Origin: Candidatus Omnitrophota bacterium
GTDB lineage: Bacteria; Omnitrophota; Gorgyraeia; Gygaellales; Profunditerraquicolaceae
Length of the DNA: 64,000 nt
Direction: 5' to 3'
Assembly: GCA_041650835.1 (NCBI GenBank)
Contig: JBAZKL010000001.1
Location: 299,931 to 363,930 of the forward strand
Shown here piece by piece: positions 31,547 to 61,272 of this stretch; within the stretch, counting starts at the first letter, position 1, and each line of letters opens with the position of its first letter. A program made the translations under genes and the position numbers. The notes under the pieces are model-generated. The model was not told where the DNA came from and did not search any database. It saw only the letters and a program-made list of their open reading frames with translations.

Positions 31547-32215
31547 TTATGAACGCTGTTTTTTTCTCTTGGCAAAAACCATCACTGCCCCGCCTACACC
31601 GAAAAGAAGCATTGAGACAGGTTCGGGAACAACGTTGATACCCAGGAAAGGCTTATGATCGCTGCTTACTGAAGAATCGAATATATGAAAAGGATCACTC
31701 CCCGCTAAAACAAGCGAAAGATTCCCGCCTTCTGTTTGTTTGGCAAAAGAAGAAACATTCCAAGAAACCCAGCCTCCTTCAGGCATATCAATGTATGTGG
31801 TATTTCCTTTGGTATTATTGGAAAAATCAGGCGCATTATTCCATGTTATGGTCGACTCATTCCAATCTTCTGTTTCACGATAAACAGCAATATCTCCTTC
31901 ATCCGGATCATTATAACCCCAACTATCTTTAACTCTGTAGAGCCATAAATATGCGCTATCAATATTACTGATATCGGTTAAGTCGAATTTTAGATATGTA
32001 CGGGTAAATTCAGTGCCATCGATACTTGGGGGGACGGCATCATAGTTAACCGTGGCTCCTGCCCACAGCTTATCAGGATGCGTAGTTCCTTCTGTTTCCA
32101 TGTAATAAAAGCTGTCCGTGAACGCATCCTCTAATGACACCCGTTGATAGTCATAGCTATACGCTTGCGCTACAGACGCAAATAGAAGGGCAAAAGAAAG
32201 AATTATCTTTTTCAT
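31547..32215 (-). CDS. PEP-CTERM sorting-domain secreted protein (paralog)
   Basis: Signal peptide. C-terminal VVPEPVSMLLFGVGGAVMVFAKRKKQRS. Confidence 0.85.
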   Translation of the reverse strand: MKKIILSFALLFASVAQAYSYDYQRVSLEDAFTDSFYYMETEGTTHPDKLWAGATVNYDAVPPSIDGTEFTRTYLKFDLTDISNIDSAYLWLYRVKDSWGYNDPDEGDIAVYRETEDWNESTITWNNAPDFSNNTKGNTTYIDMPEGGWVSWNVSSFAKQTEGGNLSLVLAGSDPFHIFDSSVSSDHKPFLGINVVPEPVSMLLFGVGGAVMVFAKRKKQRS

Positions 32216-38200: not shown

Positions 38201-40069
38201 AGCAGTGCCTTCTGCGCCGTTTAAGATCGAACCCGAAGCCATCAAAACTACCAGGCCGGGAGAACGGATATCTGAAACGTAAAGATCAGGCGCCCCTTGT
38301 TCGATAAAGATATCGCCATATGTAGATTCAGGATTTATGACTGCGGAAAGAGATCCTACGTTGGTCAGGACAGGATGGTCAAGTGAGCCGATACCAGAAC
38401 CCGCTCTTAAGTTCAAGGTACCGCCCCAATCATCACCGGAAATGGTATAATCACCGGTATTGATTATTGAACCAATGCCGGGATCATATGTTGAATCCCA
38501 TTCATACCAGAAATATTCGTTGTCTTCAGTATAAGCTTGTTGATCAGCAAAGAGATTAAGGGTGGCATTGTAACCAAGAGTGATATTACCGATAATAGTA
38601 ATATCGCGCCAAGCGTCAATAGTAGCGTCTGCTTCAATGAAAGTTGAACCTGCGGGGTCCCCGATCGTAGCGTATTCGGGGTCAAGGATGGCTTTTCCAA
38701 GGGTAAATCCCGGAGGAGCCCTGCCATTGAGAATACCAAAGAAACCCAATTGTTGGAATGCGTCAATATATACTGTTCCGCCGTTACCGCTCAAGGCTCC
38801 GGCTGAGAAATCTATTTTCGCGGTTTTGTTCACAAAAACGCTGCCCTGCCTGGCATCAATGGAGATCCTTCCGCCATTTCCCACAAGGCCCATTGCCCTT
38901 GCTTCTGTTGAGCTATTTTCATCCAAGACGGTGTTGTTTTCGCTGATAATGCTGATCTCACCGGCAGTACCCTCTTCATCAGCATTGGCAGAGATCAACC
39001 CCTGCTGCAAAATACTTTCAGCTTCCAAAACGATCTTACCGCCAGCAGGGGTTATTGCGGGCGCGTAAGCGATGATCTTACCCTCTTTAGTATTGGTTAT
39101 GCTGTCTTCCTTTACCTTTATATATATCTCCTGCGCCTTTATTTCTCCGGAATTGGTAAAAGCTGCATCAGAGGTAATAGAAACTTTGTCCGCTTCCAGG
39201 GTGCCGCTATTAGCTACCTGAGCACCTTCAGCTAACAATTCGATTATCCCATCATGTTTGACTAAAGAAGTGACTTTTACCAGTCCGGTATTGTTGATCG
39301 CATAGTCAAAAACACGATTTAATATTTTAGCAGTCAGGATAACTTTACCACCTTCTGCCAGGATTGACCCGCTATTCTTTACAGCACAAGAGATCTTCTG
39401 GCCATCCGGGCCAAAGATCTCTTCTTGCACCCCTTCATCGATCACCACTGAAATCGCGTTCTTATCTTCCAGTGCCAGGGTCATCTTTTCTCCAGAAGCG
39501 AGGACCACCGTGCCCAGATCAGCCTGGATCATCATCCGGTTATCAACTGCCTGCGAAAGCAGGCAAACGTAACCACCGGACTGCGCGTTAAGGCTACCCT
39601 GGTTAATGATAAAGCTGCCTTTACCTTCTTGAGAAAACACATAATTCCCATTAAGAAAGTCTTCATTGGCAATATTAAGCGTTGAAGCGACAAGGCCCGC
39701 GACATCAACATGAGAACCGGGGCCAAACAATACACCATTAGGGTTAACTAAAAAGATCTGCCCGTTCGCGGACAATGTCCCCATGATACTGGAAGGGTCT
39801 ATGCCAACCACGCGGTTCAACGCCACAGAGCTTGCAGAAGGCTGCAGGAAACGCACGGCTTCCTGCGCGGCTATATTAAAACTATTATAATTGACAATGA
39901 GTTTATCGGAAGGGGTATTGATATTCAGAGTATTGGATGCAGAACGGTCAAAGCTTGCCTCTCCGCTGACTACACTTTCACCTTCAGGAAGGGCAAAGAG
40001 CATAACCGGCAGAAATAAAACCATACAAATAGCGCTCATTACCCAATATTTAATCGCGGTAATCTTCAT
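32228..40069 (-). CDS. Giant TpsA-type exoprotein (filamentous-haemagglutinin-like): N-terminal TPS secretion domain, beta-helical repeats, LamG/ConA-like insert, PE-repeat linker, distinct C-terminal domain
   Basis: 2613 aa. Signal peptide. TPS domain NINTPSDKLIVNYNSFNIAAQEAVRFLQP...ALNRVVGIDPSSIMGTLSANGQIFLVNPNGVLFG. Dozens of about 40-aa YS(Q/S)A..SGDV.L.AG repeats. LamG-like block about aa 760-930. (EP)6VPEPE linker. Confidence 0.85.
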   Translation of the reverse strand: MKITAIKYWVMSAICMVLFLPVMLFALPEGESVVSGEASFDRSASNTLNINTPSDKLIVNYNSFNIAAQEAVRFLQPSASSVALNRVVGIDPSSIMGTLSANGQIFLVNPNGVLFGPGSHVDVAGLVASTLNIANEDFLNGNYVFSQEGKGSFIINQGSLNAQSGGYVCLLSQAVDNRMMIQADLGTVVLASGEKMTLALEDKNAISVVIDEGVQEEIFGPDGQKISCAVKNSGSILAEGGKVILTAKILNRVFDYAINNTGLVKVTSLVKHDGIIELLAEGAQVANSGTLEADKVSITSDAAFTNSGEIKAQEIYIKVKEDSITNTKEGKIIAYAPAITPAGGKIVLEAESILQQGLISANADEEGTAGEISIISENNTVLDENSSTEARAMGLVGNGGRISIDARQGSVFVNKTAKIDFSAGALSGNGGTVYIDAFQQLGFFGILNGRAPPGFTLGKAILDPEYATIGDPAGSTFIEADATIDAWRDITIIGNITLGYNATLNLFADQQAYTEDNEYFWYEWDSTYDPGIGSIINTGDYTISGDDWGGTLNLRAGSGIGSLDHPVLTNVGSLSAVINPESTYGDIFIEQGAPDLYVSDIRSPGLVVLMASGSILNGAEGTAIEADELYLEAIGGIGDPDYELEISVNNLVAFNEENGGIYLRNDKDLVVLTAENTAAEASINISAEGDLRVRYGIWAEGDIELNAQGNLYINTIANITAPDWAGIYLTSETGAIARRNMEVLDYGLQAYWNFDEGYGNYVYDQVTGMYSYVNGNPGWGTGVDGSSCLYFDGVDDYINTGRNFNFGSAPFTLIVWYQGTQNEQYVGLAGATPGRGLGYALENHNGYLRYWLNEQTFDSTVAINNESWYQLSMVRDGNEGGLYVFDGDETRYFSEFTVAEGSADTSSSFCIGSWGYLPLTVEGYMDDVRAYNQALSGLEIFAQTQMPAGRGEISAGTVELSAVNGIDVAMNGVQTVTASNSGSGDINIINRGDLQVGYADSYEDGIYNHGGDIYLQAMSSLNILGDIYADAPGGSISLYADDNIELADQVSISSNVGSDYYNPVANAVSGDVILSAGGDIIFGRGAGVYSYANGSGSENCSATSGVVSLTAGNNITMDWGHVYSQASASGSLTSTAYSGDVLLEAGNNLTDTGFLELIYSSANANSYLGTSAYAQSGLVSLNAGNTLTIDGRDPYYNYGADVYSWAQATAGYSAEAYSSAVILAAAYGDILLTQTEVRSDADAQTSLEEQAGSSMTAIAGQSYYDYNNYEWGYQAVLIDAGNRVVMADNSQVYGSAVAQGSAEEAYARAGDVTLDAWYDITLASHVYSDALTSAVDLAESVSGKVNLVSYYGTITIPVTSLVWSNVSAVVNSNGGSAYATSDSIDVHSWYGAVNVYLSAYSTAEAYAGGYGDYTPGLVQATSGDVTMYAGTDLTLDGGYAYTGASSSSSNAVTARLTAGNVNLAGNNIYLIDGYVYSQVEATALNAYAASGGINIYSSGIFDFNNNIYSQAAAYGESYANAVSGPVTIESGSLTVNNDIYSLAEASSETDADAYSGLVDLTINGNFVLNESVYSSAEADSSDNVEAESGDVSVTAYGAFTGNGGYIYSQAGAPEATSNSMSLTAGDVTLYSSGNMDLIDTPVQSNATASAYEYAYARTGNIDVTCLGLFRLIGFPDLNSRAQAYAFEGDAQEALAYAGYVSVLGYNGIEAAGDPQYDATVSFTSWATAESSDTAWAQSDDVNLESLLGSITLSEGFISSLAEADTGEGNSASAYSGSVSLIAGDAISFNNVSPNSRADASNASNCTAGSGNIIITAENEIVFSNQTSAYTSAVADAYGLGDAQSGDVDVTSFDGWISFDGASFYSSAQADGYLSADADSGDVTLFAEYASLFIDGHVYSSATAESSGDAAARSGDAGILAWGILVANSGDDQSSVYSSANALSWGDGNVDAQSGVVVLDAGGDRGEGSGIQLTDESSVYSSATAQGGAIATSVSGDMGLFTNASIIFNSGHVYTQASAGTSTVGGDVPASNSAIATSGEIIVSAFGNFILDLVSGLNSTAYAYGVDTAVASSGPLEITTGANFSVLSESQVYSMAQAIGLGAVAPSLTATAQAGALSVYAIGDIEIDVEGLEFPVRSEAIAQNAEGTSEIFGDMILRAGADLTLNNNLMGNTIGLYADYDDDDVIGELIFEAEYLELVAFSHSFQGANDFVVTEGADGSFYLSLNDDGTTLELYAPYGESSPSSIAIYSTLEETLTVNELQPRDDYIYLHSAGDLYLNCDLEAGTIQLHADNNDNGAGNLYSAQAVNLTSEYFSFQSASNFTFAGENLLCGNSEEPDFSASLLSDDDGLNAIRVRSTAGSIFVQYPQSGQVYGNVEVLDAARDIFLNAAISGLSSGLYISAGGAIIAGAIEGPHITSSGDVYIYDGTYSRIGEYPDYQIVYSTSMIGSLDIPLDVLITGVGNLNLVSYGLIDGVSAAFTGIIRGETTPDVINVLSAPGIVYFNNIPSEQPEPEPEPEPEPVPEPESVSQAPVGSIISYEPVSLDASDLAMFQFNSPIGSVFFYHPLTESDMGAFDQFSVGADAYELTGGQLKLVGHDSLLQFFQDFDEKLKSK
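32495..32545. repeat. Simple-sequence repeat (ggttcYgg)n encoding the (Pro-Glu)n linker of TpsA
   Basis: caggttccgggacaggctctggttctggttccggctcaggttcaggctg. Reverse complement encodes EPEPEPEPEPEPVPEPE. Confidence 0.7.
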
Positions 40070-40184
40070 AAATTTTTCTGCGGCTTATTGCTGGAATGAA
40101 ACCATCGACAAACACAACACTTACAGGATTTAGACTCTAATAAAGGCAGTATACATTATTTTGAAAGCGTTTTCAAGTTTTTTT

Positions 40185-41894
40185 TTAAAATTCTTTGGAA
40201 ACCTGGACCCAGGGATGAAAGCGGTCGCCGTCAGAAGGTGTCTTTTTAACAGACCAGGCAAAATCAGCCCTTATGGAGAAGTTTTCCGGAAGATTAAAAC
40301 GGATCCCCCACCCAAGGCTGCGCAAAGTGCTGTTTTTTCTTTCCCCTGGCTGAGGCTGGCGCAGATTAACATAACCCCAGTCATAAAATGCCACTAACTT
40401 TAAAGCATCGTAGAATTTTGCCTTTGAGAAAGGCACCAAAATATCCTTGGGTAAAAAGTATGGCGGGATCAGCCATTCCCAAGATGACGATATCCCCCGG
40501 TCTCCCACATATTCTCCGGAAGGATACCCCCTTACATTAGATATACCGCCCAACTGAAACTGTTGGGATGCCGTCAGGGTGTAGGGAGATGTTTGAGCCT
40601 GGCTCTTCCACAAAAGCATCGAGGATAACGGCATATTCTGAAGACGGATAAGATTTAAGCTATACTTGATAAATTTTCCGCCGGAGCCGACCCTTGAGGC
40701 GCGGCTGTCTTTTTCTTCCAATCCACCCATAAAATCAGCTAAACCAAGGCCTATTTCCGGAGAAATAATGGTCCTTCCTCCCCTTGCCCAAGAATCAGAA
40801 GCATCAAGGTCAGCTCCCAGTTTAACCACACGCAGACGGTCACGGCTCTGTTCATCGCCGAGTTGGAAATTAAAAGAATCCAGATAATCAAACCCGGCGT
40901 TCAAGGTAACGGCGTAATCATCCTTTTTGATCAAATCATGGATCGCGAAAATGCTGTAATTACGGCTCTTGCCTCTGGCCTCCAGGCTTTTGAATTCCCT
41001 GCCCAATTCCAGCGCTGATTTTGAGATGGAAAATCCCAGTTTAGTCCTGGAGGAAACAGGCAAAAGATAGCGCAAAGCGATCAACGTGTAATCCTGGCCG
41101 TCAGAGGTCTGATACTGCAGGGAAACAATATCATCGAATCCGAAAATATTGTTATGGCTGAGCACTCCCGTATAACGGTTCTTATCCACATAGCGGGAAG
41201 CGTAATTGTCATAATCTAACCGCAGATGTAACGGCAGGTTATCGGTAACTTCAAGGACAATATCAGTGGCACCCGCTTCCTTGCCGGGCGCGAGCACAGC
41301 CTTGACATTCCTGTCAGGATGCTCATTAAGTTTGGAAAGGTTTCTTCTGAGTTCTTTATAATCAAAATGCTCTCCTTTTTGAAGACGGATCGCCTTCCTG
41401 AGTACGGAAGTGCGGAAAAAACGGTTCCCCTTTATTTCCACGTCACCGATCACTCCTTCAACTGCCATGATCTCCATGACCTCATTTTGTATCTTTTGCG
41501 GAGGCAGATAGGCGCGGGAAGTCACATACCCTCTTTTACGATAGGCGTCAGTAATAAGGTCGACCACTTTTTGCATCTCCTCGAGCCCTATTTCTTTATT
41601 CTCAAAAGGCGAGATTATGCCCTGGATCTCCTGTTCAGGAATAAGCGTGACCCCTGTTACGTTGATCTTCTTGATCAAAACCTTCTCTCCGGCAGCAAGA
41701 GGGGCCCTGATCTCCGGCGGCGGCTCTTCTATCACCGGCTCTTCTTTCTTTTCTTCGATCCTCTCCCGCAGGAGTTTTTCTTCTTCAAGCTGGCGCTGTT
41801 CCTGCTGGAATTTCTCCACTTCCTGAGCCAGGGTTAAAGCAGGAAAAAGAAAAACAATACATATACCGATAAGAATTCTTTTTAATCTATCCAT
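40185..41894 (-). CDS. TpsB (ShlB/FhaC/HecB-family) outer-membrane transporter, cognate partner of the downstream TpsA
   Basis: Signal peptide, coiled-coil/Pro-rich spacer, POTRA (ITDAYRKRGYVTSRAYLPPQKIQNEVMEIMAVEGVIGDVEIKGNRFF) and C-terminal barrel ending ...VQVSKEF. 115 nt upstream of TpsA. Confidence 0.85.
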   Translation of the reverse strand: MDRLKRILIGICIVFLFPALTLAQEVEKFQQEQRQLEEEKLLRERIEEKKEEPVIEEPPPEIRAPLAAGEKVLIKKINVTGVTLIPEQEIQGIISPFENKEIGLEEMQKVVDLITDAYRKRGYVTSRAYLPPQKIQNEVMEIMAVEGVIGDVEIKGNRFFRTSVLRKAIRLQKGEHFDYKELRRNLSKLNEHPDRNVKAVLAPGKEAGATDIVLEVTDNLPLHLRLDYDNYASRYVDKNRYTGVLSHNNIFGFDDIVSLQYQTSDGQDYTLIALRYLLPVSSRTKLGFSISKSALELGREFKSLEARGKSRNYSIFAIHDLIKKDDYAVTLNAGFDYLDSFNFQLGDEQSRDRLRVVKLGADLDASDSWARGGRTIISPEIGLGLADFMGGLEEKDSRASRVGSGGKFIKYSLNLIRLQNMPLSSMLLWKSQAQTSPYTLTASQQFQLGGISNVRGYPSGEYVGDRGISSSWEWLIPPYFLPKDILVPFSKAKFYDALKLVAFYDWGYVNLRQPQPGERKNSTLRSLGWGIRFNLPENFSIRADFAWSVKKTPSDGDRFHPWVQVSKEF

Positions 41895-42025: not shown

Positions 42026-42640
42026 TTACTCATCTTCCCAAACACTGCCGCGGTCATTCTTACCCGCCTTGACGGAAGGGCCTGCTTGAGCGCCGGCAGC
42101 GCGAAGCAAGTCAATTATCTCGCTGTTGCTCCTAAACACTGCCATAGATAACGGTGTCGCTCCACTATCGTTCTTTGCGTTTATATCCGCTCCGTTATTA
42201 ACAAGGATTTTCGCGGTTTCAATATGCCCTGCCTTCTTACCTTTGAACGCCGCAAAATGTAAAGGAGTCGAATTATTTTTCGTCCGCGCGTCAACCAGGG
42301 CATGGTGAGCGAGTAAGATCTTTGCCGCCTCAGGCTGAGCCTGAGACGCCGCCACATGTAACGGCGTGCCCTGATTATCATTCCTTACGTTTACATCCGC
42401 CTTATAGGTATCCAAGAGCACCTTTATAACTTCCAGCTGCCCCCGGCCGACCGCCCAATGTAAAGGAGTCTTACCTAATTCATCTTTTGAGTATAGCAGG
42501 CCGGAGTCCTTATCCAGGAGAGCTTTCAATTTTACTATATCGCCGCTTTTGGCTGCTTCATGTATTTCTGCGGCATACATTACGCCGGCGCTCCCTAATA
42601 ACACACAAATAACGCATACCCCCATGATCGCTCTTTTCAT
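42026..42640 (-). CDS. Ankyrin-repeat protein with signal peptide
   Basis: Four to five TPLH(W/V/F)A(A/V)..G repeats (GKTPLHWAVGRGQLEVIKVLL etc.). Confidence 0.8.
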   Translation of the reverse strand: MKRAIMGVCVICVLLGSAGVMYAAEIHEAAKSGDIVKLKALLDKDSGLLYSKDELGKTPLHWAVGRGQLEVIKVLLDTYKADVNVRNDNQGTPLHVAASQAQPEAAKILLAHHALVDARTKNNSTPLHFAAFKGKKAGHIETAKILVNNGADINAKNDSGATPLSMAVFRSNSEIIDLLRAAGAQAGPSVKAGKNDRGSVWEDE

Positions 42641-46756: not shown

Positions 46757-47617
46757 CTATCTCGAATTTACAGGATCATCCCCGCTCACAGGGCCGGAAC
46801 GATTGAAGGGATAATATATCTTGATCACTCTGCCGATCAAGTCGCCTTTCGGGACAAAACCCCGGAACCTGCTGTCATTACTGCCGGCGCTGTAATCTCC
46901 AAGGACATAATAAGAATCCTGCGGCACAGTTACCGGTAAACCTTTTTTCCCGAACTTACCCCGGTTATAATATCGGATCCGCTTATTCCAGGATTCCCTG
47001 AGCTTCGCGCCGTTAATGAGAACAGCATGCTCTTTTAACTCGACTGATTCACCAGGTAAGCCTATGATCCTGTGCATAAAGACCTCACCCGGGTTCTCGG
47101 GAGACCTATATATAAAAACATCCCCTCTCGTCGGACCGGATTTCTTATACCCCCTCAGATCCACAAAAACACGCTCGCTCGCGTAAATTGCCGGAGCCAT
47201 TGAATCAGGAGGCGCGGAAAAAGAACGAATAAGATTATTTTCTATGAACACTTTTCCTAAATAAACCGGGTTTACTATCGCCAGGCAAGAAAGAATACCA
47301 ATTATATATATGATCATTCTCAACGGATGAGTATCCGCGGAAAGCTTACGCGCGAGATTATATTTTCTTACCTGGATATAAGCATCCACTGCGGCGATAA
47401 AATAAAGAATGAGCGGGAAAAAGAAAGGGATATACCAATGCCGGCTGATCTTTATTGCCGGCTGCAGGAAATAAAACAACAAACCCGCGGCCGGCGCAAT
47501 AGTCAACACGAAAGCGCTCACCCCGCGCGCCTGCCTGCCGGCATACACCTGCCCCAGGCCGGGTGACACTACAGATAACAACACCCCCATTAATGGTTCT
47601 TTAGCTTTTTTATTCAT
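46757..47617 (-). CDS. lepB: Signal peptidase I (S26) homolog with polytopic N-terminal extension and His in place of the catalytic Lys
   Basis: Box B APPDSMAPAIY (Ser), box D VFMHRIIGLPGESV (His where LepB has K145), box E GDYSAGSNDSRFRGFV. About 120-aa N-terminal region with 3 TM helices. Confidence 0.65.
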   Translation of the reverse strand: MNKKAKEPLMGVLLSVVSPGLGQVYAGRQARGVSAFVLTIAPAAGLLFYFLQPAIKISRHWYIPFFFPLILYFIAAVDAYIQVRKYNLARKLSADTHPLRMIIYIIGILSCLAIVNPVYLGKVFIENNLIRSFSAPPDSMAPAIYASERVFVDLRGYKKSGPTRGDVFIYRSPENPGEVFMHRIIGLPGESVELKEHAVLINGAKLRESWNKRIRYYNRGKFGKKGLPVTVPQDSYYVLGDYSAGSNDSRFRGFVPKGDLIGRVIKIYYPFNRSGPVSGDDPVNSR

Positions 47618-48534: not shown

Positions 48535-48590
48535 AAAAAGAAAAAAAGCGGCGCTCCTGTTTAAAAAACAAAAGCGCCCCCCTTTATCAA
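48535..48590 (-). terminator. Putative intrinsic terminator downstream of the giant gene
   Basis: On the minus strand: GGCGCU-(17 nt loop)-AGCGCC followed by GCUUUUUUUCUUUUU. Confidence 0.35.
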
Positions 48591-48594
48591 AATC

Positions 48595-51500
48595 CTAAAG
48601 TTTAGGATACGTCCCCAAAAATATCCCGCTTAATTCCTGCGGCTCTTGAATCGACTCAAGCACCACCAGGATATCGCCTAAGACAGGATCGGTTTCGCAA
48701 CAACTGTCTTCTTCTTGCCTTAAGATGCGCGCTATACATAAAATGATCTTATCTTTATAGCGAGCTGACGCATTTTGGACATATGCGGCGTACGTAAACT
48801 CCTGTAACCTTTGCGGACAAACATCTATCCCCGAACTGCTCACCCGTTCTATTTCCTGCCATTCCCCGGTGAGATCGACCTTTAACAACCTGCCCCGGCT
48901 CAAACCGGACATATTCGCGGTAAAATTTGTTATTGCCTGAGTAACCATAGGAAGAAAACGAAAATCAATCCCCCCCATATCATCCTTACGGAGAATTGAT
49001 GGTGAGCCTGCCGAACCATCGATCCCGCCCATGCCGCTTTCTACCGGAGAGCCGGATTTTTGGCTCACTTCTATCTCTGCTAAAATAACACCATCTCCTT
49101 CACCGAAAAAGAGCCGCGCGACCCTGTTCTTTTCGACGCCTAACTTGATGTAATATTCATCCATGGTTTTCCTGGCTGCAGGGAGCTTCCGGATACCGTC
49201 AATAATATCCATGACCATATCTCCGTTAAGCATGCAGAAAGGCATTTTCTTAGACTGAGCGTTCTTTGCCACCAGCAGCCCGAAAATTAACGAGAAGGTT
49301 TCATTGGCCGCGACTATCTTAAGAGCTGCTTCTTTTTCAGCATCGCTTAATTCAGTTGAATTCTTTATCGCATTGGTCATATGAGGATTATAGATCTCAA
49401 TATAAATATCGTGAAGTTTACGCAGGCTCTTAAAAGCGGCGGTGCCGGATAGAAGACGCTCTATCTCTACGTAAGTATTTAATATTTCCTCATCATGTAT
49501 GCCTGACTGCAGAACATGGATCGTCTCGTGCGCTAAATGTCCCGCGGAAGGGATAGCTCCGCCATAATAAATCACTCTCCCTGCCGGAAACGCTATCCCC
49601 GCTCCTTCAAGATACGGGTAGCCTTTAAGATTAAGATTATTTTCCCATCTTCGCTTTGAAAGCACTGTTACTTTCCAGCCGGCTTTTTGGATAAGCCCGG
49701 ATAAATATCGTATATCTATGTCAGTATCAGTTTTGGCGTCATTGCGAGGTACAAGACCGGCAGCAACTTCCCCAAACCCGGGTGGATCGACAAAGAATAA
49801 CAATGATAAAGCCGCTCCTCCTATAATAAAACCTCTCCTGCTCAGTAATGTTTTATTATTTGGCGGCCCGTCATTGCTTATCATAGATGAGGCGGCGGAC
49901 AGGTCAAACCGCAGGATTTGCTCATAGTTTTCTAATCTGTGTATTCCTTTCAACCTGAGCAAACCCCTCCCTCTTATTTCTTTAGGAGGGATTTTTATCG
50001 GCCACATATCAAGTTCTACTGCGTCAAAATCATCAATCGCTCCGATACAAACCCCAAACTCGTCATAGATCTCCCGCTCGACTTGCTGCATCCGGTCACG
50101 TTGCTCTTGTGTCTTATAAATTTCAACGCACATGTCTATATCAGAAGGATATTTGCGTTGAGTGCGCCCATATATTTTAAGCGCATCGCTATATGAAAGC
50201 TTTTTGGGATAAATGCCTAAACGGGGATTACGGCCCGTCATACCGCCGGCCAATCCTGTTATTTTCAACCCGATATTCTCAGCCTCCTCTATAAACTTAT
50301 TTATTGCGCGTTGATAGACGAACAATACTTTCTGGGCCGCCAGATCAGTATTGGCCACTCCAAAATCATCGAAGTACCGGCTGGACTCTATACCCTTATC
50401 CCGCATTCCCTTTATCTCCTGAACTATTTGTTCTTCAATGGATCCCATTCTCTCGCTTCTTGACTTTATTAATTCGTCCCATACATACCCGGCGTTGCGA
50501 TACAATTTCAACATTATTGCCCGCGTCCAATCACCTTTCAACGGTGAAGAAGCAGCTTCCCGGGAAGGCGCTGTGTTTATCTGCGGCCCTTCATTTGGGC
50601 CGGCCCCGGTAACAGGCGAACCCGCCTGTCTCGCGCCGGCGCCTGCCTCTTTCGCGAGAAGTTGCGCTTGCCTGTAGCGGTCCCCGATATCTACATAGGG
50701 AGTCTGACTCATGATAGCGCTTATAATTTCACTCTCCAGGATATCCGGCACATCTAAATCTTCCGCAAGCTTACCGTCAAAATTCTTTTTCCATACCGCG
50801 GACATACTTCTGCCTATACCCCTCTCCAATCTTTCCCGGAACGCGGTTTCCACATCAACATCTATTTCAACGGATTCGTCTACAAAAGACAGCGAGGTGT
50901 CGAAGGTCAGATCTATAAGAAAGTCCCTCGACGGCAGATGAAGCCCGGGCTTTAAATTACCGTAATCTTTGATCGAAGCGCACCGTAAAAACACCCCGTT
51001 ACCGTTGACATAGATCGTTCTTTGTTCATTTTCCGAACTTCCCTTATACGTTTTTGTATTCACCGTAACATCCTCAGGCAGCCACCAATCGATACCTCCT
51101 TCAAAAGGCGCGGATAAACTCACTCCTTTTGTCAAAACCACGACATCTATGTCCTTATGTTCTTTCAGGTCCGCATCTTTCTTTAAACGGTTATGCAAAT
51201 CCTTGGAAACACTTCCGACTACTATTCCAACCGCATTATGCTTTTTTAAGATCCTGTCCGCTACTAACAATCCTTCTTCTCCTACTGCCGCAAGAGGCGG
51301 GACCGGCTCTGTTAACTCCGGATCGAACTTTAAGAGTTGTTTCAACTGTATTTTTTGTTTTGAGGAAAGCTCCTGCCGCAGCTGCAGCGTTAATTCCATT
51401 CCGATAGGCGAAGCGGCAGCTCCTCGATAACTTAAACCTAATACAAATCTTACAGCGCTTTTATCATCCGGATCCGGCAATTGCCGCGTATATTCAACTG

Positions 51501-54500
51501 CCGCGGCTTCTCTTTCTGCAATACTCATGTCTTCAACTTCTTCCCTGTTCTCATAGATACGGAAAAGCTCGCGTTCTAAAGCGTGTTTTTCCCTCGCCCG
51601 CGCTATTTGTGCAGCCAATATTATCTTATCTTCAAAAGCCCGGTATAAATCATTATCGAAATAATACAGTAAAGCTGTGGTTGTGAAATCAGAATTAGGG
51701 ATGTTGCCTGAGCGCACCATGAAGAGGTCTTTCTCCTTTACAATCCAGGGAATAGTTCCCGTACTGGCCGGCAGCTCTCCGGAAAATAGCCCTAATCCCA
51801 GGACAACGTCACGGTAAGACCGGGTTATGGTTTCTTTTTCTGATTCATTCAACAGCGTTCCGATCAAAACAAGCGGATTATCCGCTTCCAGCCGGACCTG
51901 CCCGGTTATCCCTCCGATCATTTCCCCTAAAGTCGCATCAAAACGCGACCGCAGGAACGAATCCAGGGCCTGGTTATTAAAACCTTCTTTCTCAAACAGC
52001 CCCTGAGGCCCGAATAAAGCATCGTATGTAATCGAGAAATCATCCCAAAAATTTATCGCCGCCGCTGACTGTCCCATACGCGCTAAAAAACGCCTGTCTA
52101 TTGCGGCTAACCTGTCATTTATGGTCCCAAACATTTCCCCGGACGCAACAGCCACCTGCATCCTTGAAAACTCGTTTTTAGCATCTATAACCGCTGTTTC
52201 AAGCTCATTGACGAATTTAACATGGACATACGGCTTCTCTGGATTATCAGGTTTATCCAGCTTAACGATCATTCTCCTGCCGATAAACGCCTTTGAATAG
52301 AAATCCTGCACAACCCCGTAATAATATTTATCTTCACCTTTAACAACCACCCTGTCCCCTCTTTTGAATTGATGGGTGACCAGTTGCGCGACTTCGCTAT
52401 CAACACCAAGATGTATAATACGCCTGATATCCGCCATATCAAGTTCGGCAAACCTGCCGCTGGCGTTTTTATATATAAAAACACCGTTATTCTGCACACC
52501 AGGCGCTTCCAATACAACGGCCTTTTCTCCTGTCATTCTTACCCATGCATCATCTATGGTAACTTCACTCCTGGTCACAAACGTAACATACGTATGCCTG
52601 CTTATTTCCGGCCAAGCGGCCATTTCTTTGAGTAAGTCATTTTTTACAATTGATGGCACTCCAGGCAATTCACCCTGCAATAGCTCTTTTGATAAATGTC
52701 CTCCAATGAGGAAATAATACGCGTCCATGCCGTTATTGCCTGAATAATGCCCCCCCCGGCCGTCATTGACAATTATTTCTGCCACCTCATTGAGATTTAC
52801 TTTAGTCCCATCGGACATAATAACCATCGGGTTTCCGAATTCCGGAAACTCTTTGACAAAACCAGAGACCCGGCTTGTGACTTCCCGAGTATTATCCCTG
52901 CTCATGATCCCATATTGGATGTAAATAATATCCCCCTGCTTAATAGTCTTGATATTCCAGTCACGGGGATGCTTTGGCCATCTATCAGGATGTATTTTTT
53001 CTGCCGTATAAAGAGGGTCATACCCTAACTTCGCCGCATGTTGCTGGATCGTATCGGCTTCTTCCGGAGTCCATTTTTCCATATCAATATCTAATAAGGA
53101 GGCCAATTCGTCCAAGAGGCTCGCCCTATCTTCTTCGTTAACGACAACTTCCGTAGAGTATTTTTTCTTTAAAGCAGCCATTCTCTCTTTCTCGGCCTCA
53201 TTTAATTCCACCTTTTTTAAGAAATCATTAATGCCTTCGTCGTTTCTGTGGCGATTCAGCAAAGCTCTTACTTTTGAATCAAGCAGTTTTCTGTCGTAAT
53301 CATCATTCAAAACGATTTCCTCTCCCGGATTTTTACCTTTATAGTAATACCCCGGATACTGATAATTATTTCCCATGTTAGAAATGTATACGGAATAATC
53401 TCCGCTGGCGACCATACTCATGAACAAATGTAAACCCTGCCCAAGGAAATACAGGCGGATCTCCCACTGGCTGCTTGAATCAATTACCGGCACTTCAGTA
53501 TCTATTGCTTTCCAAACCCGCCTTTTGTCAGCGGAATAAACTAAGCCGTCAATCTTATCTTCATCCGACAACCGCGTTATTAATTGCCGCAACCCGCCCC
53601 GGAACTGCTCATGCCTGATAAGATCATGATGGGTTCTGGAGAGTTCACGCGCCTCATGATCAAGCGCTTCTTTTATTTGATCAGAAGTACCTTTTGCAAT
53701 AATATCTTCCCGTAAAAATAACCGGCCGTTCACCGCCGCCCCGTAAATCCTATTCTTAATAGATGATTCTTCCCTCACGATCAAACGGACAGTGTTAGCG
53801 CTGATCCCTAATCCCAGGAGCAGTGGGGCCAGGCGCCTTTTTTCTTCTTTGCTGAGCTCCCTGGTTTGCAGGGTTATATCCCTGGGAGAATTCTCCCCCT
53901 GGGACAGGAATTCTTCCTCGACCACACCGTCTTTTCCGGGAATCCTTACCGCACTAAAAAGAATTAATTTTCCATCATCATAAAGGTCCGCCCGGGGATA
54001 TTCCCAGCGCCCCATCGTTCCTCCAGCTTCCGGATTATCAGCATCAAACAAGCTCTTACGTATGGTTATCGAGCTTTTTTCCACGCTGAGCTCATCCCCG
54101 CTCCCGCCGGGAACAACTTCAACAGCCAGCGCGTATGGCAAAGCCGCAAGCACATCGACGGGATAAACTGCCGGGTATCTCAACCCTCTCTGAACAGCAT
54201 TTGCCATAGGATTATCCGGCTGTCCATGGCTGACTCCAAAATCTACCCCCCCGCTAAAATAGCTCCTGATAATCTGGCCCGAAGTAGTAGTCACTGTTTC
54301 GTGGAAGTTATATTCACCATTCTTAAATGATCTTTGATATTCTTTAAAATAGTCAATCGGCGACCATGCAACTTCTGAAGTAAGCCCCTTAAGGTCTCTT
54401 TTATCAATAAGCCGGCTATAGGATGCGCTTCTGCCGGAAAACTTCTGTTTAAACCACTGAGCTAGGATCAAGGAATAATACACCTGCCTTAAAGAAGCAT

Positions 54501-55275
54501 ATTTTTTAGAAGTATTTATATCCTTGGTCAGCGCGGGAATGATCAAATCACGAATAAGCTGTGAAGAATACGCGTTAAGCTCTTTCAAACGTTCATCTTC
54601 AAAGCTGTACTCTGTGGAATCCTTCATATAATCCTGTTCCAGCATTACCTTAAGTGTTGCTTTAAAGATATACGCGTTATCTTCGCTTTCCCGGATAATG
54701 ATCTCATCAGGGATGATCCACGGCCGCGTTAAGGTGGGGATCGTTACATTATCGCTTCCGAAGATTTCCCCTGCTTTTTTATATAGCCTGCTCCAATATT
54801 CCTTGCCTTGAGGATTATCGGGAGAGGTATAGTGCGCGGTATCTTTTTTTAGCTGCAGGTCTGACTCTAAAAGTATTTTTCCCACGTCGGTTGCGGCTAA
54901 AGCGGGGTCAATAACATTATTTTCTGAATCAGGCCTTAAATTCACCCAAAAGCAGTCATTGGGAAGGCTTACCCCTATAAAAAAATATTGCAGAAGCTGC
55001 CGGGTGGTTTCTTCGACCTGGGATGTTTTCGGTTCTTTTAAGTTTCCCTTGTCCAAAAGAAGCCTGAAATTATTGTTAAGCGTATCATAAGAAAGCGACC
55101 TTAAATGCATAGGCCGGAATGATTCCTGGACGAAATGGCTACGAATGCCCGCCAATTTTCCGGCGATGTTCAGTTCTACCGCGGCGGCCTGAGCGAAACC
55201 CGATTGCTCAAAACAAAGCAGAAAACATAGAAATAAAGAAATGATCTTAACGGTTTTATTGGATTTTAGCTTCAT
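48595..55275 (-). CDS. Giant secreted protein (2226 aa) of unknown function
   Basis: Signal peptide MKLKSNKTVKIISLFLCFLLCFEQSGFAQA. No family recognised by eye. Contains GS..DxD nucleotidyltransferase-like stretches (VGSVSKD...DIDVVVL; GRTQRKYPSDIDMCV), an internal twin-arginine-like segment SRRGFIIGGAALSLLFF, and HETIH. Confidence 0.6.
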   Translation of the reverse strand: MKLKSNKTVKIISLFLCFLLCFEQSGFAQAAAVELNIAGKLAGIRSHFVQESFRPMHLRSLSYDTLNNNFRLLLDKGNLKEPKTSQVEETTRQLLQYFFIGVSLPNDCFWVNLRPDSENNVIDPALAATDVGKILLESDLQLKKDTAHYTSPDNPQGKEYWSRLYKKAGEIFGSDNVTIPTLTRPWIIPDEIIIRESEDNAYIFKATLKVMLEQDYMKDSTEYSFEDERLKELNAYSSQLIRDLIIPALTKDINTSKKYASLRQVYYSLILAQWFKQKFSGRSASYSRLIDKRDLKGLTSEVAWSPIDYFKEYQRSFKNGEYNFHETVTTTSGQIIRSYFSGGVDFGVSHGQPDNPMANAVQRGLRYPAVYPVDVLAALPYALAVEVVPGGSGDELSVEKSSITIRKSLFDADNPEAGGTMGRWEYPRADLYDDGKLILFSAVRIPGKDGVVEEEFLSQGENSPRDITLQTRELSKEEKRRLAPLLLGLGISANTVRLIVREESSIKNRIYGAAVNGRLFLREDIIAKGTSDQIKEALDHEARELSRTHHDLIRHEQFRGGLRQLITRLSDEDKIDGLVYSADKRRVWKAIDTEVPVIDSSSQWEIRLYFLGQGLHLFMSMVASGDYSVYISNMGNNYQYPGYYYKGKNPGEEIVLNDDYDRKLLDSKVRALLNRHRNDEGINDFLKKVELNEAEKERMAALKKKYSTEVVVNEEDRASLLDELASLLDIDMEKWTPEEADTIQQHAAKLGYDPLYTAEKIHPDRWPKHPRDWNIKTIKQGDIIYIQYGIMSRDNTREVTSRVSGFVKEFPEFGNPMVIMSDGTKVNLNEVAEIIVNDGRGGHYSGNNGMDAYYFLIGGHLSKELLQGELPGVPSIVKNDLLKEMAAWPEISRHTYVTFVTRSEVTIDDAWVRMTGEKAVVLEAPGVQNNGVFIYKNASGRFAELDMADIRRIIHLGVDSEVAQLVTHQFKRGDRVVVKGEDKYYYGVVQDFYSKAFIGRRMIVKLDKPDNPEKPYVHVKFVNELETAVIDAKNEFSRMQVAVASGEMFGTINDRLAAIDRRFLARMGQSAAAINFWDDFSITYDALFGPQGLFEKEGFNNQALDSFLRSRFDATLGEMIGGITGQVRLEADNPLVLIGTLLNESEKETITRSYRDVVLGLGLFSGELPASTGTIPWIVKEKDLFMVRSGNIPNSDFTTTALLYYFDNDLYRAFEDKIILAAQIARAREKHALERELFRIYENREEVEDMSIAEREAAAVEYTRQLPDPDDKSAVRFVLGLSYRGAAASPIGMELTLQLRQELSSKQKIQLKQLLKFDPELTEPVPPLAAVGEEGLLVADRILKKHNAVGIVVGSVSKDLHNRLKKDADLKEHKDIDVVVLTKGVSLSAPFEGGIDWWLPEDVTVNTKTYKGSSENEQRTIYVNGNGVFLRCASIKDYGNLKPGLHLPSRDFLIDLTFDTSLSFVDESVEIDVDVETAFRERLERGIGRSMSAVWKKNFDGKLAEDLDVPDILESEIISAIMSQTPYVDIGDRYRQAQLLAKEAGAGARQAGSPVTGAGPNEGPQINTAPSREAASSPLKGDWTRAIMLKLYRNAGYVWDELIKSRSERMGSIEEQIVQEIKGMRDKGIESSRYFDDFGVANTDLAAQKVLFVYQRAINKFIEEAENIGLKITGLAGGMTGRNPRLGIYPKKLSYSDALKIYGRTQRKYPSDIDMCVEIYKTQEQRDRMQQVEREIYDEFGVCIGAIDDFDAVELDMWPIKIPPKEIRGRGLLRLKGIHRLENYEQILRFDLSAASSMISNDGPPNNKTLLSRRGFIIGGAALSLLFFVDPPGFGEVAAGLVPRNDAKTDTDIDIRYLSGLIQKAGWKVTVLSKRRWENNLNLKGYPYLEGAGIAFPAGRVIYYGGAIPSAGHLAHETIHVLQSGIHDEEILNTYVEIERLLSGTAAFKSLRKLHDIYIEIYNPHMTNAIKNSTELSDAEKEAALKIVAANETFSLIFGLLVAKNAQSKKMPFCMLNGDMVMDIIDGIRKLPAARKTMDEYYIKLGVEKNRVARLFFGEGDGVILAEIEVSQKSGSPVESGMGGIDGSAGSPSILRKDDMGGIDFRFLPMVTQAITNFTANMSGLSRGRLLKVDLTGEWQEIERVSSSGIDVCPQRLQEFTYAAYVQNASARYKDKIILCIARILRQEEDSCCETDPVLGDILVVLESIQEPQELSGIFLGTYPKL

Positions 55276-55382
55276 TTAAGCGAATTGTGGTTACCGATTA
55301 TTTTGGATAGAATATTATACTAAGTGTAACGTATATATAGGTAAGGTTTCAAGGGTATTTCGGGGCATTTTGAAAGCGTTTT

Positions 55383-55566
55383 CCGCGGCAGAAAGCCGCG
55401 TACCGGCGCAATACCGCCGCAGCAAGCGGCGTACCCAGCCGCTCCAATTAGGCTGGGTGCTATAAGCGCCGGGTGTAACGCCAGCACCCCAGCTTAAGAG
55501 GAATGCTGGGTGCGTCCTTGCTGGCCAGAAAGCCTGCCTGCCGGCAGGCAGGCCGCGTACCGGCAA
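55383..55566. repeat. GC-rich multi-hairpin repeat element, copy B, upstream of the giant gene
   Basis: cgcggc-AGAAA-gccgcg-GTAC, gccgc-AGCAA-gcggc-GTACCCAGCC, acccagcc-gctccaattag-ggctgggt, terminal direct repeat gccgcgtaccggc at both ends. Stem sequences are swapped relative to copy A (compensatory). Confidence 0.6.
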
Positions 55567-59916: not shown

Positions 59917-61272
59917 CTATTCGTGCTTCTTATCCTGAATATTGATATAATCGGTAAAATCGATCGGTTCACCTATTTCCTGTTTCACTACTCTTATCCG
60001 GTCAGGGACATAGGGATGGGTTTTAAAATAATTGATCGGGGCCAGCGGTTTACGCTGATTGACCTCCTGCAGCTTCTTCAGGAAAGTGATCATGTTATGC
60101 GGATCAAACCCCGCCCGTTTTATGTAGCGGGCGCCTAACTGGTCCGCGAGCAATTCATCCTCGCGGGCATACCCTAAGAAAAGCTGCGTAAACGCGACAT
60201 CAGCGGTGGCACCGACAGGACCACTCCCCGGGACCACCGCCACCAGTATACGAAAGAAATCATAGCTCATAACGCCCTGGAGTTTTTTAATGCTGTGCCG
60301 GGCAACGATATGCCCGACCTCATGGGCCAAAACACCCGCCAATTCCGCGTCATCGGAAACCTTATCCATCAAGCCCTTAAAAACATAGACATAACCGCCG
60401 GGAAGAGATACCGCGTTGACCTCATCTTCATTGACAACTTTGAAATGGTAATCGATATCCTTACGGTCGCAGACCGCCGCTATTTTTCCGCCCAGGTCAC
60501 TTACGCGTTGCTGCACCAGCGGATCATCCACAAGTTTATACTCTTTTTCCAACTCCTTGGAAAGAGCGGCCCCCATCTGGACCTCTTTATCGGTGCTATA
60601 GTAATATGTTTCCTGCTGTCCGGTAACGATATTATATTCGGTCGTACAACCGCACAACAGGCCCAAAGCGGCAGTGAACAAAACCGGGACAAACACGAAT
60701 ATTTTTATCCCGGCCTTTTTAAACATAAGGTATAATTTACGCAGAGGGATACCGACAACATTATAGAAGCATCCTTCGATACGACGTATAAAGAACGCTC
60801 CCTTGCCCTGAATATCAAAGCTGCCGGCTTTATCCAAAGGGGAAACAGAGGCGAAATAACTGTTGATCTCAGCGCCGCTCAAAGCATCCATATAGATCAA
60901 CGTCTTCTCGCAAGCTACCTGCTCTTTAGACGTGTCTTTGTTAATAACGGCTAATCCGGTATATATCCATTGCGCTTTCCCGGAAAGCCGTTTTAACATA
61001 ACACGAGCAGAGGGGAGATCTTTGGGTTTACCGAAAATGCGTTTTCCGCACACCACGATAGTGTCCGCCCCGACGATGACGCCACCGGGGACTTTTCCCG
61101 CCACTGCCCGGGCTTTTTGCAAAGCGTTATGTTTTACCAATGACTCATATGACAAACCGCACGATTGCCCTTTTTCTTGAATACCGCTTGAGACCACCCG
61201 GAACTTCAAGCCGAATATCTTAAGCAATCTTTTGCGCGCCTGAGAATCAGAAGCAAGATAGAGTTTAGTCAT
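59917..61272 (-). CDS. Maf-like nucleoside-triphosphate pyrophosphatase fused in frame to an M48-family zinc metalloprotease lipoprotein
   Basis: N-terminal 180 aa: LYLASDSQARKRLL...VIVGADTIVV...TGLAVI (Maf). Then MFKKAGIKIFVFVPVLFTAALGLLCGC (Met + lipobox, internal ATG at 60726). Then HEVGHIVARH (HExxH). Confidence 0.7.
   Translation of the reverse strand: MTKLYLASDSQARKRLLKIFGLKFRVVSSGIQEKGQSCGLSYESLVKHNALQKARAVAGKVPGGVIVGADTIVVCGKRIFGKPKDLPSARVMLKRLSGKAQWIYTGLAVINKDTSKEQVACEKTLIYMDALSGAEINSYFASVSPLDKAGSFDIQGKGAFFIRRIEGCFYNVVGIPLRKLYLMFKKAGIKIFVFVPVLFTAALGLLCGCTTEYNIVTGQQETYYYSTDKEVQMGAALSKELEKEYKLVDDPLVQQRVSDLGGKIAAVCDRKDIDYHFKVVNEDEVNAVSLPGGYVYVFKGLMDKVSDDAELAGVLAHEVGHIVARHSIKKLQGVMSYDFFRILVAVVPGSGPVGATADVAFTQLFLGYAREDELLADQLGARYIKRAGFDPHNMITFLKKLQEVNQRKPLAPINYFKTHPYVPDRIRVVKQEIGEPIDFTDYINIQDKKHE

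Follow-up and report, generated by a model that had tools for sequence, protein, structure and literature searches.

What kind of protein is encoded by an open reading frame (ORF) of 2226 amino acids (aa) that resembles nothing in the curated family collections? The question is raised by one gene in a 64,000-nucleotide (nt) stretch of the genome of a Candidatus Omnitrophota bacterium (contig JBAZKL010000001.1, positions 299,931 to 363,930; this whole stretch is called the window below). Omnitrophota are abundant, uncultured and ultra-small, are suspected of living on other microbes, and have so far drawn attention mainly for their giant genes. An initial annotation of the window, made from its sequence alone, presented the gene product as a secreted protein of no recognisable family, with patches like those of nucleotidyltransferases (NTases), an internal twin-arginine (RR) segment and a HExxH motif, and considered that it might be a toxin. 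We find that the protein belongs to an unnamed family, defined here, in which a conserved N- and C-terminal ‘frame’ surrounds shuffled gene-sized cargo, and we propose, at a probability of roughly 0.55, that it would serve as an exported carrier for enzyme or effector cargo in Omnitrophota.

A conserved frame around exchangeable cargo

Sequence searches of Pfam, NCBIfam and PDB at E ≤ 10 returned nothing, either for the whole protein or for ten overlapping 320-aa segments of it, and Pfam and NCBIfam were equally empty for ten homologs, so that membership of a curated family was rejected and no known family was found to span the whole length. The protein is built from domains absent from Pfam, NCBIfam and PDB, and literature text searches found no description of the frame, of its GGIDF/GGIDL motif or of the linker discussed below. 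The absence of a recognisable family thus holds for the curated collections and fails beyond them, where there are hundreds of clear relatives: a search of 5.8 billion proteins gave more than 630 matches to the query, all of them large proteins and almost all labelled Omnitrophota or Omnitrophica.

These relatives resemble the query at its two ends. Among the 119 listed, which range from 1231 to 3801 aa in length, query residues ~1–345 align at the relative's own N-terminus in every case (55–70% identity) and residues ~2098–2221 align at its own extreme C-terminus in 118 (30–58% identity); between the two ends lie middles of ~800–3400 aa with no match to the query in any of the 119. Pfam domains occur in the middle of 53 of them, and the cargo of relatives (the cargo domains of four were re-scanned) comprises S-adenosylmethionine (SAM)-dependent methyltransferases, GNAT, PPDK_N/PEP-utilisers, metallophosphoesterases, GGDEF, HATPase_c, HEAT and M48+ABC1, as well as NUDIX, HAD, protein kinase, NDK, CheR, glutamate dehydrogenase (GDH) and UDPGP; phosphatase, PRTase, M23 peptidase and radical SAM domains are also listed. 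Paralogs with unrelated cargo retain 60–70% identity in the N-module, and the query's complete architecture is found only in the query itself among the 5.8 billion proteins. When one genome of each GTDB species was scanned, 473 loci were located, nearly all in Omnitrophota metagenome-assembled genomes (MAGs) with a few records otherwise labelled, and several paralogs occur per genome (for example, three on JBAZTA01 contigs); one copy lies in the window.

The same plan recurs in a second, divergent subfamily. Module hidden Markov models (HMMs) recognised a divergent N-module (E ~1e-60) in eight proteins that share cargo with the query (P0123, P0127, P0128, P0130, P0131, P0135, P0217 and P0221). 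The subfamily tail reads GGIDL..NMNLQT..KF..DP....GFVPVI..I.P...LLG, its GGIDL...GFVPVI being related to the GGIDFRxLPxVTQ of the query; its N-termini have an A-x-A-type cleavage site, and Ser-Pro linkers are absent in most members. A profile of this subfamily retrieved more than 1418 further proteins, essentially all from Omnitrophota. Judged by these sequence matches, both subfamilies together form a superfamily, defined by its N- and C-terminal modules, whose cluster representatives number more than 2000, and the query is one member of it rather than a one-off.

The frame begins with the Sec signal peptide that the initial annotation had already proposed, recognisable by a basic n-region, a 12-residue uncharged core and a predicted cleavage site G-F-A|Q. 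These properties are general: 104 family N-termini have n-regions with a net charge of at least +1 (mean +3.4) and uncharged cores of 12–15 residues, and 95 of the 104 have G-x-A|Q at the cleavage site. In the N-module that follows, about 90 columns are invariant when 20 sequences are aligned. A Foldseek search gave no credible match to its AlphaFold2 (AF2) model (predicted local distance difference test score, pLDDT, 75.7; predicted template modelling score, pTM, 0.70) in either PDB (best E = 0.14, TM 0.13) or BFVD, and an N-module profile run against PDB sequences was empty, as were the Pfam and NCBIfam sequence searches. At the other end of the frame, which was modelled jointly with the HExxH domain, the region of the GGIDFRxLPxVTQ motif is predicted to be disordered (pLDDT about 35), and the motif is therefore probably a short linear one; for the helical bundle behind it Foldseek found no fold match. 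A model in which cargo inserts between duplicated GGID motifs was rejected as not general, since SGG-[IV]D[FL] ends only 15 of 239 N-modules.

The frame also occurs without cargo. P0370 (438 aa, present on five contigs) consists of signal peptide, N-module and tail, and at one locus (L089 2704–7425) it is followed 73 nt later by a 1110-aa paralog that carries cargo between the same ends, and then by a GH5 cellulase gene. P0329 (347 aa) is an N-module alone; 23 nt downstream, in another reading frame, begins an 886-aa protein with cytidine-deaminase (dCMP_cyt_deam_1) and MafB19-type deaminase matches, which is followed by a 1471-aa protein (a JGI contig; L090 6912–8127). The arrangement at this second locus suggests the fused architecture in split form, with a domain of polymorphic-toxin type. 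From P0370 and P0329 it follows that the frame is an autonomous unit to which cargo is added.

Cargo modules and their junctions

That the 2226-aa protein is multidomain, as first supposed, is borne out by several gene-sized modules mapped between the ends of the frame (Table 1), and the strings of residues on which the initial annotation relied are all present. The boundaries of these modules coincide with a short linker motif. The commonest 5-mers in the cargo regions of the family are ASSPV-like, and the pattern [AGSTVE][AGS]SP[VILA] occurs 233 times in 120 family proteins versus 16 expected from shuffles (14-fold), with 67 of the 120 carrying it. In the query it stands at aa 1287, 1551, 1575 and 2074 (with AGSPS at ~2090), that is, at every boundary inferred independently by homology. 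All Ser and Pro codons are in use in the motif, which argues for selection at the protein level, and the idea of a DNA-level recombination site was rejected on this ground. Separately, TCG-CCG is over-used at the Ser-Pro pair, TCG accounting for 40% of codons at that Ser versus 10% among the Ser codons of these genes as a whole (loci L001–L080).

An exhaustive phmmer search with aa 896–2095 against 1.84 billion representatives found, for aa ~1291–1535, more than 100 standalone relatives of ~250 aa with E-values down to 1e-32; P0140, P0141, P0150, P0185 and others are 24–40% identical to aa 1292–1535 over their whole length. In a 49-sequence alignment G69, D92 and D111 (aa 1354, 1377 and 1396) are invariant and K89 and D90 (aa 1374 and 1375) nearly so, and by this conservation aa 1292–1535 are a real conserved domain with an NTase-like signature. 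The first of the two NTase-like patches proposed earlier (AVGIVVGSVSKD at aa 1348 with KDIDVVVL at aa 1374) lies in this domain, its G-S/DxD/D residues being invariant or nearly so among the 49 homologs; the second, GRTQRKYPSDIDMCVEIY at aa 1703, could not be confirmed. Measured against the signature of the pol-beta-type NTase fold (hG[GS], then Dh[DE]h, with a third carboxylate on the following strand), the spacing from G to D is long, ~20 residues versus the usual 9–13, and the module has no Pfam, NCBIfam or PDB profile match. Because the Met that follows AAASPIG (MELTLQLRQ...) aligns with the N-termini of the standalone homologs (M..SLRLGQ...), the cassette looks like a whole captured gene. 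The standalone proteins have the same invariant Gly and Asp residues as the query but are free-standing, with no frame modules. The check for a fusion that the initial annotation proposed is thus positive for the NTase-like module, and the RR segment and HExxH domain behave in other proteins as a single transferable cassette.

The standalone family (P0140–P0270; loci L081–L088) is itself widespread, with GG/DxD/GGIDWW-type invariant residues and no Pfam or NCBIfam model. Its members are found on archaeal-type contigs (RNase P p30/Rpr2/RpoN; Dph6) as well as bacterial ones (NusG, L11, SecE), and an archaeal origin of the cassette was rejected as a general claim, two homologs being on archaeal-type contigs and another beside the bacterial NusG, L11 and SecE.

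Near the C-terminal end of the cargo, aa ~1846–2058 were matched by phmmer in P0134, P0139, P0208, P0221 and P0272. H1916, E1917, H1920 and E1992, the last a Glu that follows the HExxH by 72 residues, are invariant in six homologs, so that the position of HETIHVLQ (aa 1916, the sole HExxH in the protein) is plausibly a catalytic one. The AF2 model of this domain has a pLDDT above 90, and its best Foldseek matches, to PrpR/IrrE-type and MATCAP metalloprotease-like chains, are weak (E 0.3–4, probability ≤ 0.77; IrrE/PrpR E = 0.34). The domain has no Pfam match; its HExxH region resembles the ‘AHExxHVxQ’ motif of DUF4157.

Ahead of this domain stands the RR segment SRRGFIIGGAALSLLFF, which lies at aa 1812 rather than near aa 1870 as first placed, and thus 104 rather than 80 residues before HETIHVLQ, with the motif SRRGFII and a 15-residue core. 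A basic (Arg/Lys) hydrophobic segment lies directly before the homologous HExxH domain in the multidomain P0134, P0208 and P0221, its variants being SRRGFIIGG.. in the query, SRRYFLIELGLL.. before the second copy in P0134 and SRRYFATLILV in P0208; as the leader precedes the domain in these multidomain homologs, the RR segment is taken to be part of the cassette. A twin-arginine translocation (Tat) signal combines S/T-R-R-x-F-L-K and a moderately hydrophobic core with a location at the N-terminus of the exported precursor, and the segment lacks this location, standing at aa 1812 behind the Sec signal. Since it lies 1811 residues into a Sec-signal protein, it is more likely a relic leader of a captured cassette than a working Tat signal. 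Leaders with a good Tat consensus are also seen deep inside other Sec-signal proteins (P0038 at aa 824, P0110 at aa 388, P0328 at ~aa 420, P0089 and P0208; for example SRRNFLKWLGVSAASLVAL, SRRGFLKIAGIAAAALAL and SRRKFLKTASLGGAAAL), and a strongly hydrophobic internal segment is absent in 79 of the 120 family members.

A word-indexed search with the query middle alone returned six matches only. Module X occurs elsewhere in other positions, often near the C-terminus, and in two copies in P0121 and P0123. The stretch aa 417–1292 is common to P0121 and P0122 (~58% identity), two proteins unmatched by either module HMM of the present family. A sub-part of module Y (aa 897–1304) is also found in P0125–P0127 and P0224, and the end of the module, ...VRFVLGL, is common to the C-terminal part of P0126. 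For module Z, none of the 150 listed matches of the phmmer search with aa 896–2095 has its best stretch there, and phmmer against PDB gave nothing significant. Its NTase-like patch is a single-sequence pattern, GLAGG...SDIDMCV, and the idea that module Z is a diverged copy of the first NTase-like domain was rejected (hhalign probability 0.27).

The gene and its surroundings

The ORF is complete, and the initial reading of a monocistronic giant gene is a fair one: the gene is probably transcribed alone, with the terminator directly after its stop codon and a promoter-like site upstream. It lies between a gene for a MASE1-PAS histidine kinase, upstream, and one for a TMEM175-type channel, downstream. 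The G+C content at third codon positions (GC3) is uniform across its modules, so that composition gives no sign of a very recent foreign origin of the cargo.

Table 1. Features of the 2226-aa gene and its product, with nucleotide positions in the window.
Feature	Position	Strand	Basis and remarks
Complete ORF, 2226 aa plus stop, ATG start	48595..55275	-	Translation 100% identical to NCBI MAG protein WC695_01625 (Candidatus Omnitrophota bacterium, 868-kb contig)
Sec-type signal peptide, aa 1–28, MKLKSNKTVKIISLFLCFLLCFEQSGFA|Q, predicted cleavage	55192..55275	-	104 family N-termini; long N-terminal helix in AF2 model
N-module, aa ~29–345 (~315 aa), alpha/beta, family-defining	54241..55191	-	Motifs FRPxHLR, FWVNLRPD, LQLKKDTA, IPTLTRPWIxP, KATLKVMLEQDY, LRQVYYSLI, WFK, YFSGG
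Cargo module X, aa ~406–588, mobile	53512..54060	-	Recurs in P0002, P0003, P0030, P0114, P0121, P0123, P0124
Cargo module(s) Y, aa ~589–1283	51427..53511	-	About 58% identity to P0121 and P0122
Junction linker AAASPIG, aa 1285–1291	51403..51423	-	[A/S]SSP[V/L/I]-type
Cargo module with NTase-like motifs, aa 1292–1535	50671..51402	-	Candidate active-site residues G1354-S1355, D1375, D1377, D1396
Ala/Gly/Ser/Pro low-complexity linker, aa 1536–1585	50521..50670	-	AGSPV at 1551, ASSPL at 1575; GC 0.63 vs about 0.44 in domains
Cargo module Z, aa ~1586–1800	49876..50520	-	Holds second NTase-like patch GLAGGMTGRN...GRTQRKYPSDIDMCVEIY
Twin-arginine-like hydrophobic leader, aa 1811–1834, LSRRGFIIGGAALSLLFFVDPPGF	49774..49845	-	Kyte-Doolittle 19-residue mean 1.6
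HExxH (zincin-like) cargo domain, aa ~1846–2061	49093..49740	-	Candidate ligand/catalytic residues H1916, E1917, H1920, E1992
Linker, aa 2062–2100	48976..49092	-	SGSPV and AGSPS motifs; predicted disordered
C-terminal linear motif GGIDFRFLPMVTQ, aa 2101–2113	48937..48975	-	GGIDFRxLPxVTQ conserved across C-module alignments
C-terminal five-helix bundle, aa ~2125–2220 (~95 aa)	48616..48903	-	30–58% identity in 118 homologs; pLDDT about 90
Intrinsic-terminator-like hairpin, 13-bp stem, then T-run	48550..48578	-	Directly 3′ of stop codon; also proposed by the initial annotation
Sigma-70-like promoter candidate TTGAAA-18-TACACT; TATAAT-containing stretch just 3′	55323..55352	-	Consensus match alone

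The upstream spacer of 310 bp holds the promoter-like site and the hairpin element that had been pointed out before, which we find as a cluster of GC-rich hairpins and short direct repeats at ~55383–55564, between the histidine-kinase gene and the 2226-aa gene. The cluster contains GCCGCGTACCGGC twice, a perfect 11+11 palindrome (GCCTGCCTGCC/GGCAGGCAGGC) and two 22-nt copies; its exact 13-mer has no other occurrence in the window. An 83-aa ORF (55315–55566) overlaps the cluster and is probably spurious.

Elsewhere in the window, all on the minus strand, are several other genes of note. A two-partner secretion (TPS) pair at 32228–41894 consists of a 2613-aa TpsA (32228–40069; TPS domain E 1.2e-32), the second large exported protein of the window, and a 569-aa ShlB/FhaC-type TpsB; just upstream of the pair lies a gene for a 204-aa ankyrin-repeat protein (42026–42640). 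Signal peptidase I (S26) is encoded two genes downstream of the 2226-aa gene (46757–47617). One 451-aa ORF (59917–61272) joins a Maf nucleotide pyrophosphatase domain (aa 3–186) to an M48 peptidase domain (aa 252–432). Finally, a CBM96 protein (31547–32215) carries the PEP-CTERM sorting signal and thereby implies that the genome encodes an exosortase system.

Possible roles of the framed proteins

If the framed proteins are exported carriers, the Sec signal peptide would lead the chain, still unfolded, through the inner membrane. The strongly conserved N-module and C-terminal motif would be the common handle by which a shared machine for export, anchoring or delivery, or else an envelope structure, recognises the proteins, and the cargo enzymes would act outside the producer's cytoplasm, whether at the producer's surface, on a host or prey cell or inside one. 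Gene-sized cassettes would have been spliced between the frame ends, separated by [A/S]SSP[V/L/I] linkers, and in the query would run in the order module X, module(s) Y, NTase-like domain, module Z and HExxH domain with its own RR leader. A common handle is suggested because the N-module stays so similar despite unrelated cargo and because the frame exists alone. A carrier that acts on or in a partner cell is the most economical reading, since much of the cargo in the family depends on ATP, SAM, acetyl-CoA or GTP and since a host-dependent or predatory life has been proposed for Omnitrophota (10.1101/2023.11.21.568195; 10.64898/2026.06.07.730766).

Several observations weigh against the carrier reading. 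The ATP, SAM, acetyl-CoA or GTP that many cargo domains need is absent outside the cytoplasm, which agrees with delivery into another cell but no less with the whole protein being cytoplasmic. Export of the framed proteins is predicted from sequence features alone, and the N- and C-modules bear no resemblance to known secretion, anchoring or translocation domains, which leaves the role of the frame a guess. Among 80 loci there is no conserved neighbouring transporter, chaperone or immunity gene; a conserved gene neighbourhood was rejected, the only recurring neighbours being glmS and rsmI at one orthologous locus (20 of the 80). The internal RR-hydrophobic segments have their positive charges on the would-be periplasmic side, which is awkward for an all-outside topology, and because this charge orientation does not fit a simple topology we treat them as relics of captured cassettes. 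Moreover, the host-dependent lifestyle of this particular MAG is putative.

These points bear differently on the other readings. The position of family genes among housekeeping genes, with glmS and rsmI as neighbours and no secretion genes adjacent, would suit an envelope-tethered housekeeping scaffold, in which enzymes are held by the frame in the periplasm or at the cell surface to serve the producer's own envelope metabolism or signalling and nothing is delivered to another cell; so would a signal peptide joined to a conserved frame, and the N-module-only and cargo-less members are what a structural or anchoring role would lead one to expect. We nevertheless think this rather unlikely, as kinases, GNAT, SAM-methyltransferases, GGDEF and GDH would lack substrates in the periplasm, and extreme cargo turnover, with a unique architecture in each protein, is more like that of conflict or interaction genes. 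The junctions raise the further prospect of a polyprotein precursor, compatible with either location, whose [A/S]SSP[V/L/I] linkers would be cleaved, either in trans by a protease or by the HExxH domain of the chain itself, to set separate enzymes free; some of these enzymes would then use leaders of their own, such as the RR segment. Linker motifs lie exactly at the module boundaries and are strongly enriched; modules resemble whole genes that have kept a Met at the start as well as leaders of the RR or signal-like kind; peptidase domains recur (HExxH in the query, M48 and M23 in relatives); and processing of Omnitrophota giant proteins has been proposed earlier (10.1101/2023.11.21.568195). 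Against this stand the many members without the motif, including most of the second subfamily, the lack of a recognisable protease in most members, and the fact that linkers rich in Ser, Pro and Ala commonly serve as mere flexible or glycosylated spacers, and we consider processing of this kind less probable again than the scaffold.

The cargo is of a cytoplasmic type, and internal leaders of good Tat consensus would be meaningful only for modules that begin in the cytoplasm, both of which would be explained if the N-terminal helix were no export signal at all and the protein were a membrane-associated fusion of metabolic or regulatory enzymes inside the producer, an idea already put forward for TM-only giant proteins; about half of the Omnitrophota proteins of at least 10 thousand aa are predicted to be transmembrane-anchored with cytoplasmic domains (10.64898/2026.06.07.730766). 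We regard such a cytoplasmic assembly as improbable, the least likely of these alternatives: the N-termini are made up of the three parts expected in a cleavable Sec signal, with the short 12–15-residue core, G-x-A|Q in the great majority and an A-x-A-type site in the divergent subfamily, and the basic n-region predicts an N-in orientation that would leave the rest of the chain outside.

MARTX toxins of Vibrio and its relatives are very large single secreted proteins with conserved N- and C-terminal regions around an effector array that is reshuffled between strains. The likeness to the framed proteins, conserved ends bracketing a variable central cargo, is one of logic only, with no homology: RTX/glycine-rich repeats and the C80 cysteine protease domain were not found in the query by Pfam (E ≤ 10, whole protein and segments), the query has an N-terminal Sec signal whereas MARTX have a C-terminal type I secretion system signal, and for the query the frame modules have no known-fold match and delivery into another cell is only inferred. 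TpsA proteins and polymorphic toxins similarly combine a signal peptide, a conserved ~250–320-aa N-terminal domain and a long variable passenger, in many paralogs with different payloads. However, PF05860 was not found in the query, yet scores E 1.2e-32 in the gene at 32228–40069 of the window; no TpsB-like partner or immunity gene adjoins the query gene, the downstream gene encoding a TMEM175-type channel; and the C-terminus of the query is conserved rather than a variable toxin tip. The suggestion that the protein could be a toxin finds no support here.

Closer to home are the giant proteins of the same phylum, the ‘Archaeovorins’ (at least 10 to 85 thousand aa). Omnitrophota proteins of at least 10 thousand aa have a similar domain repertoire and many signal peptides (West-Roberts et al., 2023, 10.1101/2023.11.21.568195; a 2026 complete-genome preprint, 10.64898/2026.06.07.730766). 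They share with the framed family the signal peptides, a large Pfam-dark fraction and a repertoire like that of the query's relatives (methyltransferase, GNAT, HATPase_c, HAD, NUDIX, PPDK_N, GGDEF, HEAT and radical SAM). In contrast, the query is 10–40 times shorter (2226 aa versus a class criterion of more than 30 thousand aa); SecA_DEAD, C39, dockerin, TSP3 and glycosyl-transferase/methyltransferase arrays were not found in it by Pfam; and the N/C frame, the GGID motif and the linker are undescribed in either report (10.1101/2023.11.21.568195; 10.64898/2026.06.07.730766). Through its architecture, the framed family would belong with modular secreted carrier proteins of exchangeable payload, and it is built from uncurated domains.

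A more far-reaching form of the carrier reading, which we offer tentatively and would not bet on, holds that the N-module and GGID tail are a self-contained, Omnitrophota-specific export or delivery device that captures whole genes, complete with start codons and leaders, and carries cytoplasm-type enzymes out into or onto host or prey, so that this family of 1–4 thousand aa would be, in evolution and in mechanism, a small-scale version of the giant genes of the phylum. Whatever its mode of action, at least three uncurated domain families are defined by this work: the N-module, the C-module and the ~250-aa NTase-like family. With its thousands of proteins of 0.4–4 thousand aa, its fixed frame and its exchangeable payload, the framed family is far more tractable than the giant genes, and its small constructs suit tests of export, processing and structure. 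Should the frame prove to be a handle for export or delivery, it would serve as a sequence marker by which the effector or secretome candidates of any Omnitrophota genome could be listed, and the family would be a model for the fusion of gene-sized cassettes into ever longer ORFs.

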